A stretch of 64,000 nt of DNA from Candidatus Kapaibacterium sp. (GTDB taxonomy: Bacteria; Bacteroidota; Ignavibacteria; Kapaibacteriales; UBA2268), in the NCBI GenBank assembly GCA_963665665.1, contig OY762428.1:3712001-3776000 (forward strand), given 5' to 3'. The notes under the pieces were generated by a model that saw only the letters and a program-made list of their open reading frames with translations, had not been told where the DNA came from and did not search any database. Below are positions 4,856 to 51,114 of this stretch, in pieces (position 1 is the first letter of the stretch; every line of letters starts with the position of its first letter). The translations under genes and the position numbers were made by a program.

Positions 4856-5689
4856 TCATTTCCTGCAAAAGCTGAAAGTCAGGTTAAGGCCGTTCCAGGG
4901 ATCATCGCCTTTCACAACGTCGTCATAATATTCCATTTCTGAAAAGCCTGCTTCGCCAAGCATTTCAGTTAGTTTTTTATTCGAGAACATTGAAGTCCAG
5001 AATCTGTAAACGGAAACCATATCATTATTTTCCAGGATTACATGCTGGTAGAGAACTACTTTTTCATCCTCGTAAAGGAAGGAATCCGATAGAGCCAGGT
5101 ATGGCGTGGGACGCCAGAATCCCTTTTCAGCCATTTCCCAGTTCCTCGGGGTAAGTTTGGAATCCATATCCCTGTCGTTCAGAACATCAAAAATGAAAAT
5201 CCCGCCCGGTTTCAAAGCTGCATAAATATTTTCAAGAAGTTTCTTCTGGTCGACTGGATTCAAGACGCCGAAATCGGTATATATCAGCGTAATCAGGTCA
5301 TATTCCTGTTCCGCGTCAAGGTCCAGGTAGTTCATGTTCAGGTAGCTTATAGCTTCATTATTATCCATAGCATTCTGTTTCGCGTATTCAATGGAGACCC
5401 TGGAAAAATCCACTCCCGTTACATGGTGGCCGGCTTTATGGAATTCCCTGCAATACAGGCCCGGGCCGCAACCGAGGTCAAGAATTTTCATATTGTCGCG
5501 CCCGGCCTTTTCCAGTATCCATTTCACGGTTTCGTCGATAGTGGTTTTCTTCCTGCTGGCCAGGTCAAGTTCGGGATTCAGGTGAACGTGCAGTAATTGT
5601 GCGGCAATATATTCATCAGTCCACATAAGGCGTGTGCCTTCTTCAAACAGTGCCGGTTTGTCAGTATATTTCAATATATCGTTAATCAT
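4856..5689 (-). CDS. Class I SAM-dependent methyltransferase
   Basis: ILDLGCGPG motif I, VTGVDFS, LKPGGIFIFD. Confidence 0.9.
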   Translation of the reverse strand: MINDILKYTDKPALFEEGTRLMWTDEYIAAQLLHVHLNPELDLASRKKTTIDETVKWILEKAGRDNMKILDLGCGPGLYCREFHKAGHHVTGVDFSRVSIEYAKQNAMDNNEAISYLNMNYLDLDAEQEYDLITLIYTDFGVLNPVDQKKLLENIYAALKPGGIFIFDVLNDRDMDSKLTPRNWEMAEKGFWRPTPYLALSDSFLYEDEKVVLYQHVILENNDMVSVYRFWTSMFSNKKLTEMLGEAGFSEMEYYDDVVKGDDPWNGLNLTFSFCRK

Positions 5690-5795
5690 AGTGATAATCT
5701 TTTATTTTTGTATAAATTCAGTTGCTTAGCCATATAGATAGTGTAATTATCGAAGGTTTAGATATAAATTGACAGTCCTTTCGAAAATCACTGGC

Positions 5796-5885
5796 TGTCA
5801 TTCTGAAGAAGCTTGCGACTGAAGAATCAAACATTCTTATAAGAAAATATCAAAGAATGGATTCTTCGCTGCGCTCAGAATGACA
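5796..5885. repeat. Palindromic intergenic repeat TGTCATTCTGA...TCAGAATGACA
   Basis: Terminal inverted repeats TGTCATTCTGA/TCAGAATGACA and GAAGAATC/GATTCTTC; right arm nearly identical to 1082-1115. Confidence 0.85.
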
Positions 5886-6128
5886 TTTTTCAAAAGATCA
5901 TCAAATTTCAATACATTCAACTATCAAAAAAAGCTAAGTAAATTATTATATTCAAAGGAAATATTTAATTCCCTGATATCAATATCACGGTAGGAGTTAT
6001 TTGTGGCGTTATTTTGTTACTTTTTCATAACATACAAAATTAGTGAAAAATCCTGATAAGGAAAAAATTTTCTTTGGGTTGGGGGGGGGAGAAGCTTTAG
6101 CACAATACTTCCATATCCCCGCAGCTAT

Positions 6129-6572
6129 TTATAATTTCTTTTTCAGATAAACCATATCGATAAGTTGTATTCCGTCTTCAAACATCGGGTGGTCATAATT
6201 ATCGGTAAAGAAATTCCTGATGTAATGAGAAATTGCAAATCCGCTCTTTTCATAAAAGTTCAATATTGTTGGAATATCGCCGGTTCCTACAAGCATGCTT
6301 TTATATTTGTTTTTGTAATGGCCGGTGAGGAACTTTATCAGAGCAGTTGCATATCCATTGCCCTGATATTCGGGATATGTGGCTATGTTTTTCAATTCGC
6401 AGGTATCGTCGTCAATCGCAGCAACAACGCAAACAGTTTTCAAATCGTCGTCGAATAGCGCGAACATATCGCCGCTTTCCAGATACTTGTCAATCATATC
6501 TTCCTGCTCGTCTGCCAGTAGCAATAAATCTAAGTATAGCTTCTTATTATCGATAATTTGTTCTATTCTCAT
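6129..6572 (-). CDS. GNAT family N-acetyltransferase
   Basis: LLLLADE N-terminal motif, [14 protein letters not shown] acetyl-CoA motif, FYEKSGF. Confidence 0.9.
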
Positions 6573-6644
6573 TATATTTTCAATTCATTAATAACTATTT
6601 CAGGAAATAATTTTTTATGTTCGTGTTTTATCAACAGCAGTTCT

Positions 6645-7514
6645 CTAATCAGGCCTGTGATTTACAATTTTATCAATCCCGATCTGCTCTCCAAATTCTT
6701 TTAAATCACAATAACATTCAAGATTATTAAATAGTTTCTCAATTTTTAAAGAATCTGTTGGAGATATTAATTCGTATCCGTTTTCTTTTGTGATAAAATC
6801 ACCAAAAATATTTTTTATTGTCTCAAAGGAAACTATTTCGTTTGAAAATTTTGTTCTGAATAATTTCCTGATCTTTTTTTGAATAATAAAATAGTCAACT
6901 TCGGGTATAACTGTAGAAATATGCTCAGGCCAAACACACAAGGTAGAAATCAATCCTGTTTGATGTTCCCTATAATAAAAAATACCCGGAACAAATGTCA
7001 TATCGCCAAGCTTTTCCTGAAGAGTCTGTCTGTTGTGATTGAATTCCCATGATTTATTTGATTTATCTGGGTCAAGGTAAAATAATTCATACTTGTCGAA
7101 ATACCGGGAAGAATTCCTGGCATTAATGCCACTCCAATTTTCAAATAAATCCTTATGAGTATATTTTGCAAGTGTGTCATCTCCACCTAATTGTGGATTA
7201 AAAACCAACAAGTCAAGATCATTAATTAAATTTACTACCAGCGGAAATGCCTCTAATCCGAAAAACTGAGGCCTGATAAAATTGATATTGAACATCCAGT
7301 TCGTATTGTCAAAATCCTCGAAGCCTTCAATCGGCTCATCATCAGGATCAGGTTCGTTATATTCGAAGGAGAAATAAACCCCTGTATTCTTATTCTCATA
7401 CCAGTATTGGTCTGAGTTTTCCGAATTTTGAAATTTTTCGCTCAGATAATTCCTGATGTCCGAATCAGTCGTTTTGCAATTTTTTTCTTTATAAAAGTAT
7501 AAATCGTAACTCAT
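6645..7514 (-). CDS. Hypothetical protein
   Basis: 289-aa ORF starting MSYDLYFY; acidic/aromatic-rich; no domain recognised. Confidence 0.75.
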   Translation of the reverse strand: MSYDLYFYKEKNCKTTDSDIRNYLSEKFQNSENSDQYWYENKNTGVYFSFEYNEPDPDDEPIEGFEDFDNTNWMFNINFIRPQFFGLEAFPLVVNLINDLDLLVFNPQLGGDDTLAKYTHKDLFENWSGINARNSSRYFDKYELFYLDPDKSNKSWEFNHNRQTLQEKLGDMTFVPGIFYYREHQTGLISTLCVWPEHISTVIPEVDYFIIQKKIRKLFRTKFSNEIVSFETIKNIFGDFITKENGYELISPTDSLKIEKLFNNLECYCDLKEFGEQIGIDKIVNHRPD

Positions 7515-7698
7515 TGTTGCATCTTTCCATTTCTAATGTTGGACAACTGCTCCTTACACCTTATTCGATTTATCTTTATGATGATTAGGATAAACGAAAG
7601 TGATTCTATAAATTTACATAAAGAATAATATTTTAGCAAATTAAAAAGGAAATTGAATACTGTCGGGGGTGCACAAAATTAGTTGAGTTATTATTACA

Positions 7699-8766
7699 TT
7701 ATAGCGGATCACTTTTATCTGATTTATCTTTCATTTTATTTTTTGCCTGCCTGGTTTTCCATCTTTCCCTGGCATATTTCTGCATGTCAATTATAGTGTC
7801 CTTTTCATCAACAATTTCAAGCCCGAGCAATGTTTCGATAACATCCTCCATGGTAACTATCCCGTCCAGGCCTCCAAATTCATCCACTATCAGTGCAATA
7901 TGTTCTTTATGTTCCAACAGTTTTTCCCATAATGAAAACAGCATCACACTATCAGGAAAAGTCATTATATTACGTTTTAAATCCCTTAATTTAAGATCAT
8001 GTTCATCTTCAGCCAGTTTTTCAAACACCTGCTGCCGGAATACATACCCGCTAATATGATCATCCTTGCCGGTATAAACCGGTATCCGGGAAAAATTTAA
8101 GAAATTTTTGTTTTTCAGGAACTCATTCAAAGATAAATTTTCATCTGCTGATGCCACAACAACCCGGGGCGTCATTACTTCAGTTGCTTTAATGTTTTTC
8201 AGCTTAAGTATGTTCTGGATAATCTTATTTTCTTTGTCCGAGAACAATCCTTCGGTTGTTCCAATGCTTGCTAATGCAGCAATTTCCTCTCTGCTTGTTG
8301 TTTTTTCATCTTTATTACTTGATATTATTTTTGTAATGAATGCTGACATAACAACAAGCGGGTAGGTGATGATTATCATTGATTTTATGGTGTAATAAGA
8401 TAACATCGAAAAATTTTTCCAGTACCTTGCACCTATCGTTTTAGGGATTATTTCAGTTATCACAAGAATCAGAATGGTAAGTATGGCAGATGCAATTCCA
8501 AATGAAGCTTCTCCGAAGACTTTTACAGCCTGTGCTCCGACACCCGCGGCCCCGATAGTATGAGCAACCGTGTTCAATGATAATATGGCTGAGAGGGGTT
8601 TGTCGATATTCACCTTAAATTCAATATATGATCTTGCCCAGCTATGTCCTTCGTTCTGCTTCACTATCAGATATGAGCGCGGAGTGGATAGAAGAACAGA
8701 TTCCATAATTGAGCATAGGAATGACACGAATAAGGCCAGGAAGAGATATGCAAATAAGGCTATCAT
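7699..8766 (-). CDS. CNNM/DUF21-CBS domain protein (CorB/HlyC-like)
   Basis: SFLCSIMESVLLS, EIIPKTIG, VMTPR, SRIPVY, VDEFGGLDGIVTMEDVIE. Confidence 0.92.
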   Translation of the reverse strand: MIALFAYLFLALFVSFLCSIMESVLLSTPRSYLIVKQNEGHSWARSYIEFKVNIDKPLSAILSLNTVAHTIGAAGVGAQAVKVFGEASFGIASAILTILILVITEIIPKTIGARYWKNFSMLSYYTIKSMIIITYPLVVMSAFITKIISSNKDEKTTSREEIAALASIGTTEGLFSDKENKIIQNILKLKNIKATEVMTPRVVVASADENLSLNEFLKNKNFLNFSRIPVYTGKDDHISGYVFRQQVFEKLAEDEHDLKLRDLKRNIMTFPDSVMLFSLWEKLLEHKEHIALIVDEFGGLDGIVTMEDVIETLLGLEIVDEKDTIIDMQKYARERWKTRQAKNKMKDKSDKSDPL

Positions 8767-8890
8767 TTTTTCTCTAAAATATCCGAAATTATGTATTGTA
8801 TTTATTTATTATCAGAAAATACCCTTCCGAAACCCGACACTTTGCGCCATTACAGCAGAGGCCGCCAAAAAACATATTGCCTGTTATCCA

Positions 8891-40380: not shown

Positions 40381-42225
40381 TTATCTAAAATTAAAACCAT
40401 CGAGTACATCAAATACACTTTGTATTCTGCCAAATGGCGCTGATATCTGTATTCCCTTAATATGATTCCGTATCCGATTCAGCGTTTCCCGGGCAATATC
40501 AATACCTTCCTTAAGGCTGTCTTCCTTCGAACCTGCTCTTTTTCTCATTCGAATCAGTATTTCTTCCGGGACGTCACAGCCGGGTACTTCATTGTTCATG
40601 AACTCTGCATTTCTTATGGATACAAGTGGCCATAAACCCGCAACAATAGGGATTTTTATATGTTTTGTTCTTTCAATAAAATTCTCAAATACTCTGATAT
40701 CAAAAACCGGTTGAGTAATAATAAATTCTGCCCCGGCATCAACTTTCCAATCCAGCCTTTTTATTTCTTCATCCAGGTTTACAGCGCCGGGATTAGCACC
40801 AACCCCAATGAAGAAACCCGTAGGATCGCCAATCGGGTTTCCGGCTATATCCATTCCGTGGTTCAGACGGTTTATTATATTTACGAGGCCGATGGAATCT
40901 ACATCAAAAACTGCCGTGGCATCAGGGTAGTTTCCCAGTTTCGGGGGGTCGCCCGTAATAGCTAATATATTTTTTAAACCAAGAGCATAGGCGCCCAGTA
41001 AATCTGACTGAATGCCAATTACATTACGATCCCTGCAAACATAGTGCAAAAGGGTTTCAATGCCCACTTCACGCTGAATTTTAACTGCAAGTGCCATTGC
41101 TGACATCCTTGCGCTGGCACGAGGGCCGTCAGGGATGTTAATACAATCAATTCCATAATAGTTAAGTTCCCTGGCTTTTTCAATTTCCTTTTTTGGGAGT
41201 ACTCCCATAGGTGCGAGTAGTTCAACAAATTTTATAAAATGGCCGTCTTTAAGTTGCCTTGCAGTTCTGGATTTTTTCTCACAGGGAACAGTTGATATTT
41301 CAATTTTCTTGGCTGGCTCGCTGAATTTAACCCTGTTTTGTTTCAGGTCCGGTTTCAATGAGTTCAGCATATTACTCATTTTTTTGATATGCTCAGGCCC
41401 TGTTCCGCAGCATCCTCCAATTATATCTGCTCCGGTTTGTATATAGTGCTTTGCATATTCGCCAAGATATTCAGGGGAAGTCAGGTAAATATTCCTCCCG
41501 TCAATATTTTTTGGTTTACCTGCATTCGGCATCACTGATATATATTTATCCGTATACTTTCTGGCTTCCTCCAGCCAGTTCAGCATAACCCTTGGCCCTA
41601 CCGAACAATTCACCCCGATAATATCTGCCCCGAAACTTTCCATTTCCCTGATCATTATTTCCGGTGAAGCACCTGTAAGTGACCTGGAATGTTCGTTGAT
41701 TGTCATCTGTGCGATAACCGGCAGGTTTGTGACTTCCCTTGCAGCCTTAACAGCACATTTCAATTCGTCAGGATAGATGAAGGTTTCGAAAAGAATAATA
41801 TCTATTCCGCCATCAATCAGGGGAATCAATTGTTCTTTGAAAAATTCAATTGCCTCTTCACGGCTGATTGGGCCCAGAGGTTCAATTTGAATTCCAAGCG
41901 GCCCGACTGAACCAGCCACGTAAACAGAATTATCGGCAACTTCCCTGGCAATTGATGCTGCATTAAAATTTATCTCTTTAAGATTTTCATGCAGCAGTTG
42001 CCTTCGAAGTTTGAACCGGTTCCCGCCAAATGTATTTGTGGTAATAACTTCCGCACCGGCTTTGATGTAATCGGAATGAATATCTTTTATCAACTGTTTG
42101 TTTGATAAGTTAAGTTCCTCAAAGCACTTGTTAAGGAATACCCCTCTTTTGTACAGTTCAGTTCCAAAACCACCGTCAAATAGTATCGGACCCTTTTTTA
42201 TTCTCTCTAAAAAGCTTAATTTCAT
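40381..42225 (-). CDS. Bifunctional homocysteine S-methyltransferase / methylenetetrahydrofolate reductase (YitJ-like)
   Basis: FDGGFGT, GVNC, GGCCGT in the N-terminal domain; IPDGPRA, CRDRN, ITGDPP, ITQPVFD in the MTHFR domain. Confidence 0.93.
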
Positions 42226-42403
42226 ATTAATAACGAATCAGTTGTTTTTAATAAAACTAATAATATAATTTAGCTGTACTAAAAAACCAAATTATTTGTG
42301 ACTATTTTCAAAAAACAGTCAGATTTTAATAAATATACTTGCATATTTGAAATCATTCTGTTTATTTTGTTTTAGCAGCATAGAGAATAAATTTTTGAAA
42401 CAA

Positions 42404-43618
42404 ATGAACATATTAAAATATTCCATTCCTATTTTATTTCTCCTGATTTTCAACGGGAAAGCATTTTCCGATGAAAATTGTTTTCTTACAGCCAAACCAA
42501 AAAAGGGAGACGGTATATCTACTTTTTTGAAACGCTATGGCCTTCCTGCCGGTAGTGAAGAGAAAAAATCATTTATTGATATAAATTCAGGGCGGCTTAC
42601 AAAAAGAAACGGCCTTGTTCTTGGCAGGCATTATCAATTGCCCATATTGAAAGTGAAATTCAACGGGAAAACAATACGCTCGTGTACGGGTATCGTTAAT
42701 TTTGACAGTGCAAAAGCAATCCAGGATTATAATGACAAACTTGCTAAAAGAAGAATCAAAGATAAAGATTTTAGAATCGATAAAGTACTTTGGGTACCAC
42801 AGTTCCTTATATCCGTTTCCCAGGAAAAAAATATACCTGAAAAGTCTCTTGATTGCAATGAAAGCGGCAGAAAGATAAATGCACCAGACTTATCAATATT
42901 CGGGGAAGCGAATTCAAAATTAATTAAGAGAGACACAAAGCTGAATGGTGCTGTGTTTTACCTTGTTGCAGGGCATGGCGGGCCTGATCCGGGAGCTGTT
43001 GGGACAAGGGGAAAATATACTTTTTCTGAAGACGAGTACGCTTACGACGTTACTTTAAGGCTCGGCAAAAGATTGCTTGAACACGGGGCTACTGTTCATT
43101 TCATAGTTCAGGATCCCAATGACGGGATAAGAAGCGGTAAATACCTGGAATTGGATTATGATGAATACTATCTCGGTGGTGATACAATTTCGGCTGATCA
43201 GCTTGAAAGACTGGCAAAAAGGGTGGAAATTATTAATAAAGAATATCAAAAATCTAAAAAAAAATCAAAATATCAGCGTGTTGTCGTAATACATGTTGAT
43301 TCCAGAACCGAAGGAAAGAAAATTGATATATTTTTCTATCATAATCCCGGAAGCCTGACAGGAGAAAAATTTGCAAAAAACCTACAGCAAACTATCAGGA
43401 AAAAATACGCTGCAGCCCAGCCTGGCAGGGGATACGGCGGTACTGTCAGCTCCCGTGGGCTATACCTTTTGCGCAAAACCAATCCTGTTTGTGTATATAT
43501 AGAACTTGGGAATATACAGAATTCAAGAGACCAGCTGCGATTTTTTCAGGAGAATAACAGGCAGGCTATTGCAAACTGGCTTGCTGAAGGTTTGATAGAA
43601 GATTTTAACCAAAAATAA
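42404..43618 (+). CDS. N-acetylmuramoyl-L-alanine amidase (Amidase_3)
   Basis: Signal peptide; AGHGGPDPGA, EDEYA, IHVDS, YIELGN zinc/catalytic motifs. Confidence 0.9.
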   Translation: MNILKYSIPILFLLIFNGKAFSDENCFLTAKPKKGDGISTFLKRYGLPAGSEEKKSFIDINSGRLTKRNGLVLGRHYQLPILKVKFNGKTIRSCTGIVNFDSAKAIQDYNDKLAKRRIKDKDFRIDKVLWVPQFLISVSQEKNIPEKSLDCNESGRKINAPDLSIFGEANSKLIKRDTKLNGAVFYLVAGHGGPDPGAVGTRGKYTFSEDEYAYDVTLRLGKRLLEHGATVHFIVQDPNDGIRSGKYLELDYDEYYLGGDTISADQLERLAKRVEIINKEYQKSKKKSKYQRVVVIHVDSRTEGKKIDIFFYHNPGSLTGEKFAKNLQQTIRKKYAAAQPGRGYGGTVSSRGLYLLRKTNPVCVYIELGNIQNSRDQLRFFQENNRQAIANWLAEGLIEDFNQK

Positions 43619-43783
43619 TTATTTGCAAAAATAGCCACAAAATGATTACAAAAGAATTTATAAATGCCTAATAAATATTAGTAATAGATTAAAAAATCCT
43701 ATATATTTGTATCTGCATATTATAGCAGAAAATGAAATTGATTTTGAAAACAGTAAATTATGATTTTTTAACCGGAGAAAAGT

Positions 43784-45019
43784 ATGAATGTTTTAGTGCT
43801 TAATTGCGGAAGTTCATCACTGAAATTTCAGATTGTTGATACTGATTTAGAGAAGATAGGTAACGATGATGATAAGATGTTGGCAAAGGGATTGATAGAA
43901 CGTATTGGTAGTCAGTCACTTATGACATTTCAGGTAATGGGAAAACCTGCAGTTAAAATGGCAACACCTTTAAGAGATCACAGGGCTGCAATTTTCCAAC
44001 TCAAAAAATGGCTTGAATCAGACGAAACAAAAATCCCGGGCCTTACAAGCAACGAAGATATTCATGCTATCGGCCACCGCACAGTACATGGCGGTGAAAG
44101 GTTCAAACGCTCGGTTCTTATAGATAATGAAGTAATTCAGGGTATCGAAGATTGTATCGACCTGGCTCCGCTTCACAATCCTGCAAACCTGAAAGGTATT
44201 TATGCAGCAAGGGAACTTTTTGGCCCTGTTGTTCCTCAGGTAGCAATTTTTGATACTGCATTCCATGCTTCTATGCCACAGTCTCATTACTTGTATGCTA
44301 TTCCTTATCAGCTCTACAGAAGGTATAAGATCAGGCGTTACGGATTCCATGGAACATCTCACAGGTATATACGCTACAGGTATGGCAAAATTACCGGACG
44401 TACACCCGAAGATACCAACATCATTACAATCCACCTTGGCAACGGCGCTTCGGCATGTGCTATTAAAAAAGGAAAGTCAATTGATACTTCAATGGGATTC
44501 ACTCCGCTTGAAGGCCTTATGATGGGTACAAGGTCGGGTGATATTGATCCTGCTATCGTTGAATATCTGTCGCACAAAGAAGGTGCTACACTTGACGAAG
44601 TAATGGCCACATTGAATAAACGTTCAGGCCTTCTCGGCGTGTCCGGCCTTACAAATGATATGCGCGACCTTCTTGAAGAAATTGATGAATTCCACGACAG
44701 GCGTGCGCTTCTTGCAATCGACATGTTTGCTTCCAGAGTTAAAAAATATATTGGTGCTTACATCGCTGAAATGAACGGTTGCGACGCTATCTGCTTCACA
44801 GGCGGTATTGGCGAGAACTCACCTGAAGTACGTCGCCAGATATGTGCAAACTTAGAAAACCTTGGAATCGAGATTGATGACATCCTTAACCAGGATGCTA
44901 TTCGCGGAAAAGAAATGCTGATAAGCACAAAGAGCAAAATTGCAATCTATGTAATTCCCACAAATGAAGAACTCGTAATGGCTCGCGATACAGTACGTTG
45001 TGTTATGAACGCAATATAA
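43784..45019 (+). CDS. ackA: Acetate kinase
   Basis: VLVLNCGSSSLK, GHRTVHGG, APLHNP, FDTAFH, RYGFHGTSH, HLGNGAS, FTGGIGENS, TNEE. Confidence 0.97.
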   Translation: MNVLVLNCGSSSLKFQIVDTDLEKIGNDDDKMLAKGLIERIGSQSLMTFQVMGKPAVKMATPLRDHRAAIFQLKKWLESDETKIPGLTSNEDIHAIGHRTVHGGERFKRSVLIDNEVIQGIEDCIDLAPLHNPANLKGIYAARELFGPVVPQVAIFDTAFHASMPQSHYLYAIPYQLYRRYKIRRYGFHGTSHRYIRYRYGKITGRTPEDTNIITIHLGNGASACAIKKGKSIDTSMGFTPLEGLMMGTRSGDIDPAIVEYLSHKEGATLDEVMATLNKRSGLLGVSGLTNDMRDLLEEIDEFHDRRALLAIDMFASRVKKYIGAYIAEMNGCDAICFTGGIGENSPEVRRQICANLENLGIEIDDILNQDAIRGKEMLISTKSKIAIYVIPTNEELVMARDTVRCVMNAI

Positions 45020-45065
45020 AATTTGGAAAATTAAGTTGTTTTAATAAAGATTTACAGGAATTATA

Positions 45066-46049
45066 ATGGCCGATAATACATTTATAAATGGCGTAAGGGC
45101 AAAAGCCGCTGAAATTTGCAAAAGAGTAGCCTTCCCCGATGCAGCAGATGTTAGATCAATTGAAGCATCAAGATTTCTTGCCGACCAGAAACTGGCAGAA
45201 CCGGTACTCGTTGGATATGAAGATGAAATAAAAAAAGTTGCTACTGATAATAATATAAATCTTGATGGTATTGAAATTATCGATCCCAAACAAAGCAATC
45301 TGAGCGAAGAATTCGCCAATATGCTTTTCGAGAAAAGAAAAAATAAAGGAATGACAATAGAACAGGCTAAAGAAACAATTCTTGACCCGCTATATTTTGC
45401 CGGTTATCTTCTTGAAACAGATAATGTTGCAGTTGCTGTTGGCGGTAACGTTTCTTCAACCGGCAACGTACTCCGTGCTGCAATTTATTCAGTGGGCGTT
45501 GCTCCCGGTATTTCAATTGTAAGTTCATACTTCATCATGGTTCTTACAGACGGCAGAATGCTTTGCTTTGCAGATTGTGCCGTTAACCCTGATCCGGATG
45601 CAAAACAGCTTGCAGATATTGCTATTGCTTCAGCAAAGAATTTCCAGTCAGTAACAGGTGAAGAATCAAAAGTTGCCATGCTTTCGTTCTCAACAAAAGG
45701 AAGCGCTGAGCATCCGCTTGTTGATAAAGTACGCGAAGCAACAAAGATCGTTTCTGAAAAAGAACCCAACCTACCGGTTGACGGTGAACTTCAGCTTGAT
45801 GCTGCTATTCTTCCTGCTATCGGTGAAAGAAAAGCTCCCGGATCGAAAGTTGCCGGTAAAGCTAATGTTCTTGTATTCCCGGATCTAAATGCCGGAAATA
45901 TTGGTTACAAACTTACACAGCGTCTTGCAGGCGCCGAAGCTGTCGGGCCGATCGTTCAGGGGCTTGCAAAACCTTATTGCGATCTGTCAAGGGGTTGCAG
46001 CACCGAAGATATGGTTAACGTAGCCTGTATTTGTTCACTGATGGCTTAA
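45066..46049 (+). CDS. pta: Phosphate acetyltransferase
   Basis: [44 protein letters not shown]. Confidence 0.95.
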
Positions 46050-46071
46050 GCAGATCACAGATAATAATATT

Positions 46072-46110
46072 ACAATACTACAGAGGCAATGCTTTTGTAG
46101 TATTGTTTTA
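46072..46110 (+). terminator. Long stem-loop after pta (terminator or processing/stabilising hairpin)
   Basis: ACAATACTACAGAGGC-AAT-GCTTTTGTAGTATTGT 16-bp stem followed by TTTA. Confidence 0.6.
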
Positions 46111-46162
46111 ATTTAACCGGCAGTTTAAACTGTTTTAGTTAAAACATACAACGAGGTATCTA

Positions 46163-47692
46163 ATGGCTTATGAAATTAAAGGCGAAGGCTTAACAATTGA
46201 CAACCTGGTCAATGTTGCAAGAAATTATGAAGAAGTAAAACTTGCTGATGAATCCGTTGAAAGAATCAAAAAATGCAGGGCATTGCTTGAAAGAAAAATT
46301 GAAGCACGCGAAATCATGTATGGTGTAAATACAGGTATCGGTGAATTTTCTGAAGTTGTTCTTGACGATGACCAGGTGAAAGAATTCCAGAAATACCTTA
46401 TCTATAACCACTCTGCCGGTATAGGTGATCCTGCCCCGATTGAACATATAAGGGGTGCTATGCTTGCAAGGACAAATGTTCATGCACATGGTAATTCGGG
46501 TTGCCGCCCGGAAATAACTCAAACTTATGTAGATTTGCTTAACAAAGGCCTGACGCCGGTTGTTTGCGAAAAAGGCTCGGTTGGAGCATGTGGCGACCTT
46601 GCACCTATGTCACAAATTGCTTTGACGTTGATGGGTGAAGGCGAAGTATTTTTCGAAGGTAAAAGAATGCCTTCGAAAACAGCTATGGAAAAAGTCGGTA
46701 TTCCAATTCCCGGGCTTAAAGCAAGAGACGGTCTGGCAGCTATAAATGGTTCAAATCTTCTCACTGCCATGAGCGCTATTACGCTTCATGATTATAATAA
46801 ATTCCTAAAGATGGCTGAGATTGCCGCTGCTATGTCTCTGGAGGCATTGCTCGCTAACATGAAACCTTATGATATGAGAATTCATCAGCTTCGTGGTTTC
46901 AAAGGGGCGCAGCGCAGCGCTATGGCATTGAATAAATGCCTGGCCGGCTCTGATCTTATCAGTGGTAAAATTAAAACGAAAGTTCAGGATGCATATTCAA
47001 TGCGTTCAACACCGCAGATTATCGGCGCGGCACATGATGCACATGCTTATGCAAGATCTCAGGTTGAAATTGAACTTAACGGAGTAGGTGATAACCCGAT
47101 ATTCATTCCCGATGATGATGTACAGCTTTCAGGAGCTAACTTCCAGGGTACTCCGGTTGCTGTTCCAATGGATATGGCAGGTTCATCAGTAACTATGGTC
47201 AGCGTTTTGTCTGAACGCCGACTGAACAGGCTTCTCAATCCTGCCCTCAGTGTCGGTCTGCCGGCATTTCTTACTAAAGGAGCGGGAATGTTCTCAGGCC
47301 TGATGCTTAGCCAATATACAGCAGATATGCTTATTGTTGAGCAGAGAATTCTTTCAAACCCGGCATCAATTCAGTCTATACCTGCTGCTGCAGACCAGGA
47401 GGACTTTGTATCGATGGGAATGAATACAGCACTGAAAAATAACCAGATACTTGATAATGCTTACGGAGTACTCGGAATAGAATTCATGGCTGCCGCACAG
47501 GCTCTTGATATCAGAGATTTCAATAATGGCGACGGTGTTATGGCTGCACGCAAGGTAATCCGTGAACATGTTGAATTCCTGGAAATTGACAGGCCACTTT
47601 ATAAAGACCATAACACTATGAAAGAACTTGTAAGATCAGGAAAAATTCTTGAAGCAGTTGAAGCTGTCGTTGGCAGCCTCGAAACAGAATAA
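46163..47692 (+). CDS. Aromatic amino acid ammonia-lyase/aminomutase (HAL/PAL family) with atypical Ala-Cys-Gly MIO motif
   Basis: YGVNTG, GSVGACGDLAP, INGS, QDAYSMR, DNP, NFQG, QEDFVSMG. Confidence 0.92.
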   Translation: MAYEIKGEGLTIDNLVNVARNYEEVKLADESVERIKKCRALLERKIEAREIMYGVNTGIGEFSEVVLDDDQVKEFQKYLIYNHSAGIGDPAPIEHIRGAMLARTNVHAHGNSGCRPEITQTYVDLLNKGLTPVVCEKGSVGACGDLAPMSQIALTLMGEGEVFFEGKRMPSKTAMEKVGIPIPGLKARDGLAAINGSNLLTAMSAITLHDYNKFLKMAEIAAAMSLEALLANMKPYDMRIHQLRGFKGAQRSAMALNKCLAGSDLISGKIKTKVQDAYSMRSTPQIIGAAHDAHAYARSQVEIELNGVGDNPIFIPDDDVQLSGANFQGTPVAVPMDMAGSSVTMVSVLSERRLNRLLNPALSVGLPAFLTKGAGMFSGLMLSQYTADMLIVEQRILSNPASIQSIPAAADQEDFVSMGMNTALKNNQILDNAYGVLGIEFMAAAQALDIRDFNNGDGVMAARKVIREHVEFLEIDRPLYKDHNTMKELVRSGKILEAVEAVVGSLETE

Positions 47693-47724
47693 TTGTTATA
47701 ATAATAAATCATACGGAGATATTC

Positions 47725-48621
47725 ATGGAGTTAAAATCCCTGAATGATTTAATAGAAATCGCAAAACAGAAACCAAAAAAGAAAATTGCTGTAGCTGCTG
47801 CTGCCGACGAACCCGTACTCCAGGCAGTTGCTGATGCTATGCAGGCCGGAATTGCAGATCCTATTCTTGTTGGAAATGAAAAAAACATCAGGGATATTGC
47901 GGCAAAAATTAATTTCAATCTTGATAATGTTGAAGTTATCAACGAAGAAAATGCTGCCAGGGCTGCAATTAAGTGTGTAAAGATAATCCGCGACGGTGAA
48001 GCCCAGATAATCATGAAGGGCCTTGTAGCCACTGCTGATTATCTGCGTGCCATTCTGAACAAAGAACACGGCCTTAGAAAAGGTTCGCTTCTTTCTCATA
48101 TCGGATTTTTCGAAGTACCGGTTTATCATAAACTACTTGCTTTGACCGATGCAGCTCAGAATATTGCCCCCAACCTTATGGAAAAGGTCGGTATTCTTAA
48201 TAATTCGATTGATATGTTCCACCACCTCGGTATTGAAAAGCCTAAAGTTGCTATGCTGGGAGCAGTTGAAACAGTCAACCCGAAAATGGAATCTACTATT
48301 GATTCAGCTGCCATCACACAAATGTACAGAAGAGGGCAGATAAAAGATTGTATGATTGACGGCCCTCTGGCTTTCGACAACACAATATCAATGGAAGCTA
48401 CAAAACATAAAGGAATTGTAAGTGAAGTAGCAGGCGATGCCGACTTACTTTTCGCTCCGAATATTGAAGTTGGAAACGTTCTTTACAAGTGTTTCACATA
48501 CTTCGGTGGCGCTACGGTAGCTGCTGTTATTCTTGGAGCTTCAGTTCCTGTTGTTCTTACATCCAGGGCCGATTCTGATAAGAGCAAGTTAATGTCTCTG
48601 GCTTTAGCTGCATCCTATTGA
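47725..48621 (+). CDS. ptb: Phosphate butyryltransferase / phosphate acyltransferase
   Basis: IMKGLV.TA, AVETVNPKM, DGPLAFDN, PNIEVGNVLYK, PVVLTSRADS. Confidence 0.9.
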   Translation: MELKSLNDLIEIAKQKPKKKIAVAAAADEPVLQAVADAMQAGIADPILVGNEKNIRDIAAKINFNLDNVEVINEENAARAAIKCVKIIRDGEAQIIMKGLVATADYLRAILNKEHGLRKGSLLSHIGFFEVPVYHKLLALTDAAQNIAPNLMEKVGILNNSIDMFHHLGIEKPKVAMLGAVETVNPKMESTIDSAAITQMYRRGQIKDCMIDGPLAFDNTISMEATKHKGIVSEVAGDADLLFAPNIEVGNVLYKCFTYFGGATVAAVILGASVPVVLTSRADSDKSKLMSLALAASY

Positions 48622-48666
48622 TTTGAATTATAAATTTTTTTGTATAATTGACCAACAGATTGGAAA

Positions 48667-49737
48667 ATGAAAATACTAACAATTAATCCGGGTTCCACAT
48701 CAACAAAAATTGCTGTTTTTAATAATTTGGAATCTGTGTTCGAAAAAACTTTGCGCCACTCGGTGGATGAGCTTGCAGATTTTCAAAATATTACCGACCA
48801 GTTTGAATTCAGGCGCAATATTATACTTGATTGTTTGAAAGAAGAAAATATTTCTGTTGATTCTTTCGATGCAATAGCCGGCAGGGGTGGAATGTTGAAA
48901 TCCATTCCGGGCGGAGTTTACAGGGTAAACCAGGTTATGATAGAAGACCTGAAAAAAGGTGTTCAGGGCGAGCATGCTTCAAATCTTGGTGGCATACTTG
49001 CCAGAGAGATTGCTCAGGAAACAAAGCATCCTGAAAATGCTTTTATCGTGGATCCTGTTGTTGTTGACGAGATGGAAGATATTGCCCGCTATTCCGGGCT
49101 TCCGGATATGCCAAGAGTAAGTATATTCCACGCTTTGAACCAGAAAGCTGTAGCCAGGCGCTATGCCAGGGAACACGATCTTGATTATAAAGATATTAAT
49201 CTTATCGTTGTTCATCTCGGCGGGGGTATAACCGTTGGTGCACACAGGCGCGGCCGGGTGGTTGATGTTAATAACGGACTCGACGGCGAAGGGCCGTTCT
49301 CGCCAGAAAGAGCCGGCACAGTACCTGTTGGCGCACTGATGAGACTTTGCTTCTCTGGTAAATATCAGCTTCATGAAGTAAAGAAAATGTGCGTTGGAAA
49401 AGGTGGTATGGTATCATACATGGGCACTAACGATGCTTATGAAGTAGAATTGATGATGGAAAAAGGCGACCAGAAAGCAAAGGACTGCTATCTTGCGATG
49501 GCATACCAGGTGGCTAAGGATGTTGGTGCCAATGCAACAGTGCTTAAAGGCGAGGTGGATCAGATTCTGATAACAGGAGGCCTTGCAAGGTCCAAACCTT
49601 TCGTTGATATGATCAAAGAAAGAATTTCTTTCCTTGCCCCGGTATCAGTTTATCCCGGTGAGGACGAACTTCAGGCATTAGCTGAAAACGTTCATTACGC
49701 TATGCTTGGCGAACGCCAGATAAAAGAATACCTCTGA
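48667..49737 (+). CDS. buk: Butyrate kinase
   Basis: ILTINPGSTSTK, GRGG, HASNLG, DPVVVDE, HALNQKA, HLGGG, GPFSPERAG, YPGEDE. Confidence 0.96.
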   Translation: MKILTINPGSTSTKIAVFNNLESVFEKTLRHSVDELADFQNITDQFEFRRNIILDCLKEENISVDSFDAIAGRGGMLKSIPGGVYRVNQVMIEDLKKGVQGEHASNLGGILAREIAQETKHPENAFIVDPVVVDEMEDIARYSGLPDMPRVSIFHALNQKAVARRYAREHDLDYKDINLIVVHLGGGITVGAHRRGRVVDVNNGLDGEGPFSPERAGTVPVGALMRLCFSGKYQLHEVKKMCVGKGGMVSYMGTNDAYEVELMMEKGDQKAKDCYLAMAYQVAKDVGANATVLKGEVDQILITGGLARSKPFVDMIKERISFLAPVSVYPGEDELQALAENVHYAMLGERQIKEYL

Positions 49738-49761
49738 TAGTTACATATAATTTGTTTATAG

Positions 49762-49789
49762 GATCCCGGCTTCGAAGTCGGGATTTTTA
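49762..49789 (+). terminator. Intrinsic terminator after buk
   Basis: ATCCCGGCTT-CG-AAGTCGGGAT stem followed by TTTT. Confidence 0.8.
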
Positions 49790-49913
49790 TTATTTATCGG
49801 CTTGCTTTTTATATTTATTTTGATTTCCTGATTAAATATATAAAAGATTCAATCAGGGTAACAACTCAGCATAAAGGAAGAGTATGTTAGATATGGTTAA
49901 TAATACCAGAAAA

Positions 49914-50005
49914 TGTCACTCTGAACGAAGTGAAGAGTCTATTCTTCATAATTTTATCCTAAAAACAAGTGGATTCTTCAGTCGCTTCGCTCCTTCAGAA
50001 TGACA
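49914..50005. repeat. Palindromic intergenic repeat (inverted copy of the 5796-5885 family)
   Basis: TGTCACTCTGAA..GATTCTTCAGTCGCTTCGCTCCTTCAGAATGACA; the right arm is close to the reverse complement of 5796-5828. Confidence 0.85.
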
Positions 50006-50166
50006 TTTTTGCAATTATTCTTTTCAAAAACAGAATAATATTATATTTGCTGAGTAGTATTCAATCAGGTAATACTGAAACATCATCATATCAATACCCG
50101 GGAAGAATGTTAATAATCTTTAAATTAGTACTTTGAGTGAATCATATCAATAGGGATGTAACTATC

Positions 50167-50203
50167 AAAAAAAGAAAAACCCGCGAAAATTTTTAGCGGG
50201 TTT
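50167..50203 (-). terminator. Terminator downstream of tRNA-Met
   Basis: AAACCCGC/GCGGGTTT stem with an A-run on its left. Confidence 0.65.
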
Positions 50204-50211
50204 AAGTTTTG

Positions 50212-50285
50212 TACCGGAGGACGGATTTGAACCGCCGACACTCGGATTATGATTCCGATGCTCTAACCAACTGAGCTACTCCGGC
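50212..50285 (-). tRNA. tRNA with CAT anticodon (probably elongator tRNA-Met)
   Basis: Reverse complement GCCGGAGTAGCTCAGTTGGTTAGAGCATCGGAATCATAATCCGAGTGTCGGCGGTTCAAATCCGTCCTCCGGTA folds as a cloverleaf. It has no initiator GGG/CCC anticodon stem, and CCA is not encoded. Confidence 0.93.
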
Positions 50286-50343
50286 TCACAAGAGAATTCA
50301 AATATACGGCTAATTTTTATAATGCGCAAGAACTTTTTAATAT

Positions 50344-50955
50344 TTATCCTTCGGATCCTGTCATTTTGTTCAATTCGTCTCTAAGTTCCGCGGCCTTTTC
50401 GTAGTTTTCTTCCTGAATTGCTTTTTCAAGCTGCATCTGCAGCATTTCAAGTTTGGATTTAGGCTGATCTTCCTCTTTAGGTTTATCCGGTTTTTTCATG
50501 AAACCAAGATCGTCTTCCTCATCTTCAGAGGCAGGAAAGTCTTCTTCACCTTCCTGCGGAGCCAATCCTGTTTCGTCCAAAATGCCACTGTTCACATATA
50601 TCGGAGCTCCGCAACGGACAGCAAGCGCTATGGCATCGCTCGGCCTGGAGTCTATTTCAAGGTTAATGGATTCAAATATCAGTTTGGCATAGAAAGTACC
50701 GTCTCTAAGTTCATTTATGAAAACTTCAGTAAGTGAAGTCCCCATTTTGTCGATCAATGATTTCATAAGGTCATGAGTCATAGGACGCGGGGGAACAACT
50801 CCTTCCATTTCAAGAGCTATAGCCTGGGCTTCAAATGCCCCGATAATAATTGGCAGCCTCCTGCTGCCTTCTGATTCCTTTAAAATTAAAGCGTAGGCGT
50901 TATTACTTGCCGGGCTGGCTGACAATCCCAAAACTACGAGTTGAATTTTTTCCAT
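50344..50955 (-). CDS. Bifunctional nuclease (DUF151) with C-terminal UVR domain
   Basis: LPIIIGAFEAQAIA, RPMTHDL, DSRPSDAIALA, ENYEKAAELRD. Confidence 0.93.
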   Translation of the reverse strand: MEKIQLVVLGLSASPASNNAYALILKESEGSRRLPIIIGAFEAQAIALEMEGVVPPRPMTHDLMKSLIDKMGTSLTEVFINELRDGTFYAKLIFESINLEIDSRPSDAIALAVRCGAPIYVNSGILDETGLAPQEGEEDFPASEDEEDDLGFMKKPDKPKEEDQPKSKLEMLQMQLEKAIQEENYEKAAELRDELNKMTGSEG

Positions 50956-51114
50956 TCCTTGTCTATTCTCTGTTCAATTAAAAAAATATTCCGGTTTACA
51001 GACTTTTTCAATGTCCTTTTATTGCAGTTCGAATAACTGCAAAATGTATTTTAATTTTTCTGCAATATATAAAATGAATTCTTAAAATTAACTTTCTTTT
51101 ATTCCCTAAATCAA

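Follow-up and report, generated by a model that had tools for sequence, protein, structure and literature searches.

The 64,000-nucleotide window analysed here (positions 3,712,001 to 3,776,000 of contig OY762428.1, Candidatus Kapaibacterium sp., assembly GCA_963665665.1) contains at 46163..47692, on the plus strand, an open reading frame (ORF) that starts with ATG and encodes a protein of 509 amino acids, P0001. Profile, model and fold matches place this protein in a clade of putative histidine ammonia-lyases (HALs) marked by the motifs LIYNH, NFQG and QEDFVS. The 4-methylideneimidazol-5-one (MIO) cofactor of such enzymes is taught as arising from an Ala-Ser-Gly (ASG) triad. P0001, however, has Ala-Cys-Gly (ACG) at this place. 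Re-reading of the sequence confirmed the codons GCA TGT GGC at 46586..46594 (plus strand), inside GSVGACGDLAP, as Ala142-Cys143-Gly144, the presumed MIO precursor that a first-pass annotation of this DNA, made from the letters alone, had noticed. These residues presumably share their numbering with the A142-S143-G144 triad of Pseudomonas putida HAL. The Ala and the Gly of the triad are retained, and Ser and Cys alternate between them across the clade.

The remaining motifs named in that annotation could all be located in the 509-residue frame, again on the plus strand. They comprise the Tyr53 loop YGVNTG with the catalytic base Tyr53 (residues 53-58; 46319..46336), LIYNH (79-83) with Asn82-His83 (46406..46411), INGS (194-197) with Asn195 (46745..46747), QDAYSMR (275-281; 46985..47005) with Gln275, Tyr278 and Arg281, NFQGTP (326-331) with Phe327 (47141..47143), and QEDFVSM (412-418) with Glu413 (47399..47401). 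When 20 clade members were aligned with 24 other HAL sequences (alignment A1), Tyr53, His83, Gly144, Asp145, Asn195, Arg281, Phe327 and Glu413 were found to be invariant, and Gln275 and Tyr278 to be conserved in at least 90% of the rows. The pair Asn82-His83 keeps the imidazole-binding His of HAL and has Asn in place of the canonical Ser.

Mutagenesis of known HALs gives these positions a meaning. In a study of Geobacillus HAL (PMC11432326), mutations of Y52, H82, N194 and E411 abolish activity and those of Q274, R280 and F325 lower it, effects that mirror those in P. putida HAL; the same study assigns imidazole binding to His83 and Glu414, and carboxylate binding to Arg283 together with Gln277 and Tyr280. 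The P. putida residues Gln277, Tyr280, Arg283, Phe329 and Glu414 correspond to Gln275, Tyr278, Arg281, Phe327 and Glu413 of P0001, and every HAL residue that mutagenesis defined is retained in P0001. A separate difference between the lineages lies right after the carboxylate-binding Arg, where residue 282 (47006-47008 in P0001) is Ser in 20 of 20 clade rows and Cys in 22 of 22 canonical rows; Cys282 is thus paired with Ser143 in the canonical lineage, and Ser282 mostly with Cys143 in the clade.

P0001 matches the aromatic amino acid lyase superfamily profile PF00221 over residues 10-468 with 531.2 bits (gathering score 27.3). Phenylalanine ammonia-lyases (PALs), tyrosine ammonia-lyases (TALs) and the aminomutases belong to the same superfamily; PALs and TALs carry Phe-Leu or His-Leu pairs where P0001 has Asn82-His83. 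The scores of P0001 on the models of all these enzymes stay far under the cut-offs: 197.8 versus 519.15 for PAL (TIGR01226), 321.2 versus 700 for the FlxA TAL model, 362.9 versus 501 for tyrosine aminomutase (TIGR03832) and 337.1 versus 800 for phenylalanine aminomutase (TIGR04475). On both grounds we reject a PAL, TAL or aminomutase identity. The motif NFQG also occurs in PALs; standing in place of NFHG, it is here a marker of the clade and not a sign of PAL chemistry. With His83 and the HAL-type Glu413 retained and the PAL model missed so widely, the earlier description of P0001 as a HAL/PAL hybrid is not supported.

The best solved sequence relative of P0001 is the HAL of Thermoplasma acidophilum (7tqr; E 3.6e-90, residues 3-496 aligned), which has the canonical markers RSH, NFHG and QEDHVS and lies outside the NFQG group described below. 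An AlphaFold2 monomer model of P0001, built on the 44 rows of A1, reached a mean pLDDT (predicted local distance difference test) of 93.5, and its best Foldseek matches were P. putida HAL structures (1eb4, 1b8f), with template modelling (TM) scores of 0.93-0.94; this establishes the HAL/PAL fold of the chain, the active site of HAL being formed by several subunits jointly and therefore not displayed in a monomer. In fold and length P0001 equals both P. putida HAL (PDB 1b8f, 1gkm, 1eb4) and Geobacillus kaustophilus HAL (HutH, EC 4.3.1.3), and the numbering of Tyr53, His83 and residues 142-144 is identical to that of HutH. It differs from P. putida HAL by the Cys for Ser at position 143 and by an overall identity of about 31-32% in the Foldseek alignments; identity to a canonical HutH of the Ignavibacteria type is 39%. 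Ergothionase (PDB 6s7j) and the histidine betaine lyases, which yield urocanate-type products, share the same fold (TM 0.94-0.96).

Cysteine at position 143 is natural and conserved. The 120 top-ranking homologue clusters are 75-82% identical to P0001 and bear labels that include Ignavibacteria, Kapaibacteria, Chloroflexota, Desulfobulbaceae and TA06; 104 of them have ACG and 16 ASG, and all 120 carry LIYNH or LVYNH. When one genome was searched for each species, at least 591 relatives came up, from which 80 loci were taken for analysis. The clade gene was detected by sequence pattern in 79 of these loci, 53 with ACG (TGC 34, TGT 19) and 26 with ASG, the Ser codons of the latter being AGC (11), AGT (2), TCC (8), TCA (3) and TCG (2), or 13 AGY and 13 TCN. 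Logan contigs of sequencing runs X1 and X3, both from a single sample that may have been the source of the assembly, match the gene over its full length without a difference. The contig of run X4, which comes from another sample and study, has six differences in the gene, none of them within 46586-46594; rare variants may be masked in assembled contigs of this kind.

A sequencing error or a strain-private mutation would find some encouragement in the fact that TGT is a single base away from AGT, and in three genomes of the same family (G081, G137 and G045), all of which read ASG with AGC or AGT codons, a caveat to viewing Cys as typical of the nearest kin. Against this stand the many clusters and species loci with Cys and the codon retained in the contig from another sample and study. 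We reject sequencing error on this evidence, and the chance that the TGT codon reflects either an error or a private mutation is negligible. The ASG of the three same-family genomes points to a switch of this residue that is recent in the lineage of this genome. The first-pass annotation had conceded that its proposal would fall if the closest homologues all had ASG, a condition that applies only in part: the same-family genomes do, but the closest sequences have ACG. Contigs, clusters and species loci together uphold the cysteine that it had taken to be natural.

In a library of representatives at 50% identity, the next relatives of P0001 are just 56%, 52% and 48% identical, and the group at 70-82% identity behaves as a single tight cluster. 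This clade spans many bacterial phyla as well as archaeal bins labelled Thermoplasmatales (73-74% identity). A FastTree phylogeny of 260 rows gathered the sequences with NFQG and QEDF/YVS in a group of 134 tips, consisting of 112 with Cys, 21 with Ser, and P0126, which was missed by the triad pattern and reads ASG. Parsimony on this group requires at least eight changes between Ser and Cys, with the other catalytic motifs constant; the two residues are interchangeable at the triad position within an otherwise fixed catalytic framework.

A 'quick' IQ-TREE phylogeny of 51 rows chosen from the 260 recovered the same NFQG superclade with a Shimodaira-Hasegawa-like approximate likelihood ratio (SH-aLRT) support of 99, and placed it among canonical HAL representatives on an unresolved backbone. 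The early branches of the superclade are, in order, P0126 (ASG), P0134 and P0123 (the latter two with ACG and YSH), and the LIYNH clade is nested inside. P0126, the earliest of them, passes the HutH equivalog model (547 versus a cut-off of 539.15), as do 88 of the 95 full-length representatives scanned, out of 150. The distinct clade postulated in the first-pass annotation is recovered, with Cys as its typical residue, and the phylogeny seats it among HutH/HAL representatives. ACG is not confined to the superclade: P0226, which its score of 650.6 bits marks as a canonical HutH, has it, and so does P0234. Branch lengths are 0.03-0.3 inside the LIYNH clade and 0.5-1.5 for canonical rows. Such short branches, and 70-82% identity across many phyla and archaea, point to horizontal spread of the LIYNH clade together with tight constraint.

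The source genome, a single contig of 5.46 Mb, contains P0001 and one more PF00221 gene, the divergent paralogue P0122. It also encodes the downstream Hut enzymes, with hutU at 435 bits, hutI at 452.4 bits and ftcD at 409.9 bits, all above cut-offs; its best hutG match, at 79.1 bits, is under the cut-off, and the route that the genome has is that through FtcD. Ten genomes in a sample of 151 from the phylum, the source genome included, carry the clade gene (orthologues 69-100% identical), and hutU was found in all ten. Five of these carriers are near-complete (99-100%); each of the five has no PF00221 match besides the clade gene, and each has hutU (about 900 bits) and hutI.

We extended this survey to 50 of the 80 species loci, from many phyla and in genomes for which completeness figures are not given. 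A hutU match was found in 48 of the 50 carrier genomes, in 47 of them above the cut-off. The clade gene was the single PF00221 match in 30 carriers, 28 of which have hutU above the cut-off (one with in-frame stops), one a fragment only and one none. Urocanase depends on urocanate, for which no source other than lyases of the PF00221 family is known, so that the sole family member of such a genome is most simply a HAL. The substrate of the clade had been called unpredictable at first; the invariance of the mutagenesis-defined residues, the passing of the HutH cut-off by most of the nearest representatives and the many urocanase-bearing genomes in which the clade gene is the sole lyase of its family all speak for histidine.

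The hutU of the source genome is of a long type (open frame of 676 amino acids, 435 bits, G000:C1:2195910-2197559, locus L003), and three same-family genomes, which are 2.7-3.3 Mb in size as against 5.46 Mb, have a short type of about 555 amino acids and about 900 bits; this difference suggests that the urocanases of the source genome and of these relatives differ in origin. In genome G194 the hutU match (G194:C3:203745-204923) contains six TGA and one TAA codons in frame, and in G176 the lyase matches (G176:C47:53264-56509) are fragmented and interrupted by stops in frame. Either gene decay or an error-rich assembly would explain such matches.

We infer that P0001 is probably a true histidine ammonia-lyase whose MIO is formed from cysteine by loss of H2S. 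The backbone of Ala142-Cys143-Gly144 would cyclise and dehydrate as in the Ala-Ser-Gly enzymes, with the Cys143 side chain leaving as H2S and not as water, to give the same 4-methylideneimidazol-5-one. A P. putida histidase engineered to carry S143C, the same change at the same position, reportedly matures to a fully active enzyme. There the change was made in the laboratory, in a canonical enzyme, whereas in the clade of P0001 Cys is the natural majority state. Catalysis would then proceed as in canonical HAL, converting L-histidine to trans-urocanate and ammonia: Tyr53 would serve as the base, His83 and Glu413 would hold the imidazole and Arg281 the carboxylate. The urocanate would pass to HutU, HutI and FtcD, whose genes lie at other sites of the genome. 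Most likely, the branch is an unstudied and widely transferred one whose precursor is usually Cys and whose reaction is that of an ordinary HAL.

A number of observations weigh against this reading. P0001 barely passes the histidine ammonia-lyase subfamily model NF006871 (525.2 versus a cut-off of 524) and, at 498.8, stays under the cut-off of 539.15 of the HutH equivalog model TIGR01225. The clade and canonical HAL are fixed differently at 33 positions, several of them beside catalytic residues: N82 for S (N in all 20 rows of the clade, S in 20 of the 22 canonical ones), S197-N198 for T-Q, M280 and S282 at Arg281 (the latter where the canonical Cys is lost), A325 and Q328 close to Phe327, and F415 instead of H. 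Because of these substitutions a shifted specificity of the clade enzyme is possible. In the source genome the hut genes are unlinked to the lyase gene, and P0122 could be the HAL of this genome. Co-occurrence with hutU is by itself weak, since hutU is present in 108 of the 151 genomes of the phylum sample anyway (any HAL homologue in 110). A canonical-type lyase is also present in 20 of the 50 carriers, in some of them beside hutU (for example G163, G165 and G168), and there the clade gene could serve another function. Nor is there a conserved operon to lean on: when 916 ORFs from the 80 loci and the window (81 sources) were clustered, no neighbour family occurred in more than 12 of the sources, and we rejected this idea.

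P0122, the paralogue just mentioned, is a protein of 520 amino acids recognised by profile match, encoded on the minus strand at G000:C1:4123073-4124422 (1330-2892 of locus L002), outside the window. Its motifs are ASG, LIRTH (RTH in place of YNH), NFHG and QEDHVS, together with an unusual Tyr loop, YGFTRGFG; its identity to P0001 is only 31%, and it scores below every NCBIfam cut-off (HutH 385.8). An aminotransferase-like ORF adjoins its gene.

The substitutions around the active site, the missed equivalog cut-off and the coexistence with canonical hutH in 20 of 50 carriers would fit a clade of MIO lyases acting on another imidazole-type substrate, such as a modified or methylated histidine, or an isozyme that differs in its kinetics or its regulation, and in both cases something other than a simple substitute for HutH; the unusually short branches across phyla likewise suggest a tight constraint of its own. 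Such a specialisation has to accommodate the invariance of the first-shell residues of HAL (His83 and Glu413 among them), genomes in which this is the only PF00221 gene (30 of 50, and 5 of 5) and which nearly all have a urocanase, and a basal superclade member that passes the HutH cut-off. We hold it to be unlikely. A related and bolder view, to which we give a small chance, is that the clade is a functionally distinct lyase, spread horizontally through lineages of mostly anoxic habitats, which its Cys precursor and an altered second shell would endow with a property that canonical HAL lacks. This property may be an H2S-releasing, thiol-dependent and redox-gated maturation of the cofactor, or a preference for modified histidine, and a distinct function would explain why the clade gene is kept beside canonical hutH in some genomes.

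In three related genomes the two genes are paired in an interval between HflX and RmuC genes. In G097 and G057 the clade gene adjoins, downstream of HflX, a canonical hutH that scores 648-667 bits, with RmuC following in G097, and in G105 it lies about 2.5 kb, or two genes, from a canonical hutH of 651 bits. The paired genes occupy 5585-8809 of locus L088 and 5561-9039 of L089, where they are adjacent, and 5332-10954 of L090, where they are about 2.5 kb apart. The clade copies of these three loci score 491-503 on TIGR01225, and two of them have ACG and one ASG. The clade gene was found in the HflX region of 12 other loci, and no second lyase was seen in 10 of these 12. A clade gene beside HflX, with canonical hutH in some genomes and without it in others, looks as if one gene had been replaced in place by another of the same function, which speaks for a HAL.

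It is also conceivable that Cys143 is not eliminated at all, leaving no MIO or a thiol-substituted imidazolone, and with it an inactive protein, another mechanism or a maturation that depends on redox state. In the literature searched we found no examined natural ACG enzyme, and MIO-free relatives do exist in the family, namely ergothionase and histidine-betaine lyases (10.64898/2026.04.22.720169). These MIO-free lyases are, however, described in that preprint as being without the Ala-Ser-Gly triad, whereas P0001 keeps Ala142 and Gly144 and its clade has Cys or Ser at 143. Asp145 and Phe327 are retained as well, and the alternation of ASG and ACG in one tight clade, with no other motif changing, is hard to square with a different chemistry; the engineered S143C histidase, too, is reported to be active. 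A cysteine that stays in place is thus quite improbable, and formation of the ordinary MIO, with H2S as the leaving group, is what we favour.

In the literature searched, which leaves most subscription journals outside its coverage, we found no report of a natural Ala-Cys-Gly MIO triad, and according to a 2026 preprint (10.64898/2026.04.22.720169) no characterised aromatic amino acid ammonia-lyase can do without Ala-Ser-Gly. Here, Ala-Cys-Gly is the natural majority precursor in a clade of at least 591 species-representative genomes. Should biochemistry confirm our proposal, family signatures, annotation rules and cofactor annotations that insist on Ser would need widening, and the clade would be a source of natural enzymes for MIO maturation by H2S loss. 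The codons add an evolutionary aspect: as the Ser codons of the clade come from both families in equal numbers and TGY is one step from AGY and from TCN, Cys may be a viable intermediate through which a catalytic residue passes from one set of serine codons to the other. For the genome at hand, the likely annotation of the gene is HutH, in a HutH-HutU-HutI-FtcD route that is linked to genes of acetate and butyrate fermentation.

These fermentation genes surround the lyase gene on the same strand, in the order ackA (43784-45019; TIGR00016, 507.1 bits), pta (45066-46049; TIGR00651, 362.5 bits), lyase, ptb (phosphate butyryltransferase, 47725..48621; NF004472, 400.5 bits versus a cut-off of 399) and buk (butyrate kinase, 48667..49737; TIGR02707, 533.3 bits). 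A consensus scan found terminator-like hairpins on the plus strand between pta and the lyase gene (46072..46106, 16 pairs with a T-rich tail) and 3' of buk (49760..49787). Because of these flanking hairpins and the short gaps (32 bases from lyase to ptb, 45 from ptb to buk), the lyase, ptb and buk genes likely form one transcription unit ending at the second hairpin. The same order of these three was found in 3 of the 80 loci (L040, L043 and L063). An association of the lyase with acetate and butyrate kinase genes would fit amino-acid fermentation. An Rfam scan of 42000-51000 at E <= 0.1 returned just a tRNA (50212-50285, minus strand, 68.5 bits), between buk and an ORF at 50344-50955, and no riboswitch or leader 5' of the lyase gene. 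None of the runs listed with this gene were RNA runs, and run X5 gave fragments only.

Beyond the window, the contexts of the clade gene are lineage-specific, and the neighbourhood offers no general functional clue. They include the arrangement BatA-HflX-lyase-RmuC, a histidyl-tRNA synthetase upstream in 7 loci, and ptb-buk in 4 sources including the window. The histidyl-tRNA synthetase gene lies at most two genes upstream of the clade lyase in these seven loci, which are of Bacteroidales type, a weak link to histidine; Bacteroidales-type loci with this gene just upstream are L049, L064, L073, L080, L083, L084, L086 and L087. An N-acetylmuramoyl-L-alanine amidase-like gene lies upstream in the window (42347-43618, plus strand), and amidase followed by lyase is an order conserved in the three same-family genomes, the amidase being the sole neighbour that they share with the window. 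The pair ackA-pta stands directly 5' of the lyase both in the source genome, where it lies between amidase and lyase, and in L040, where no amidase was found.

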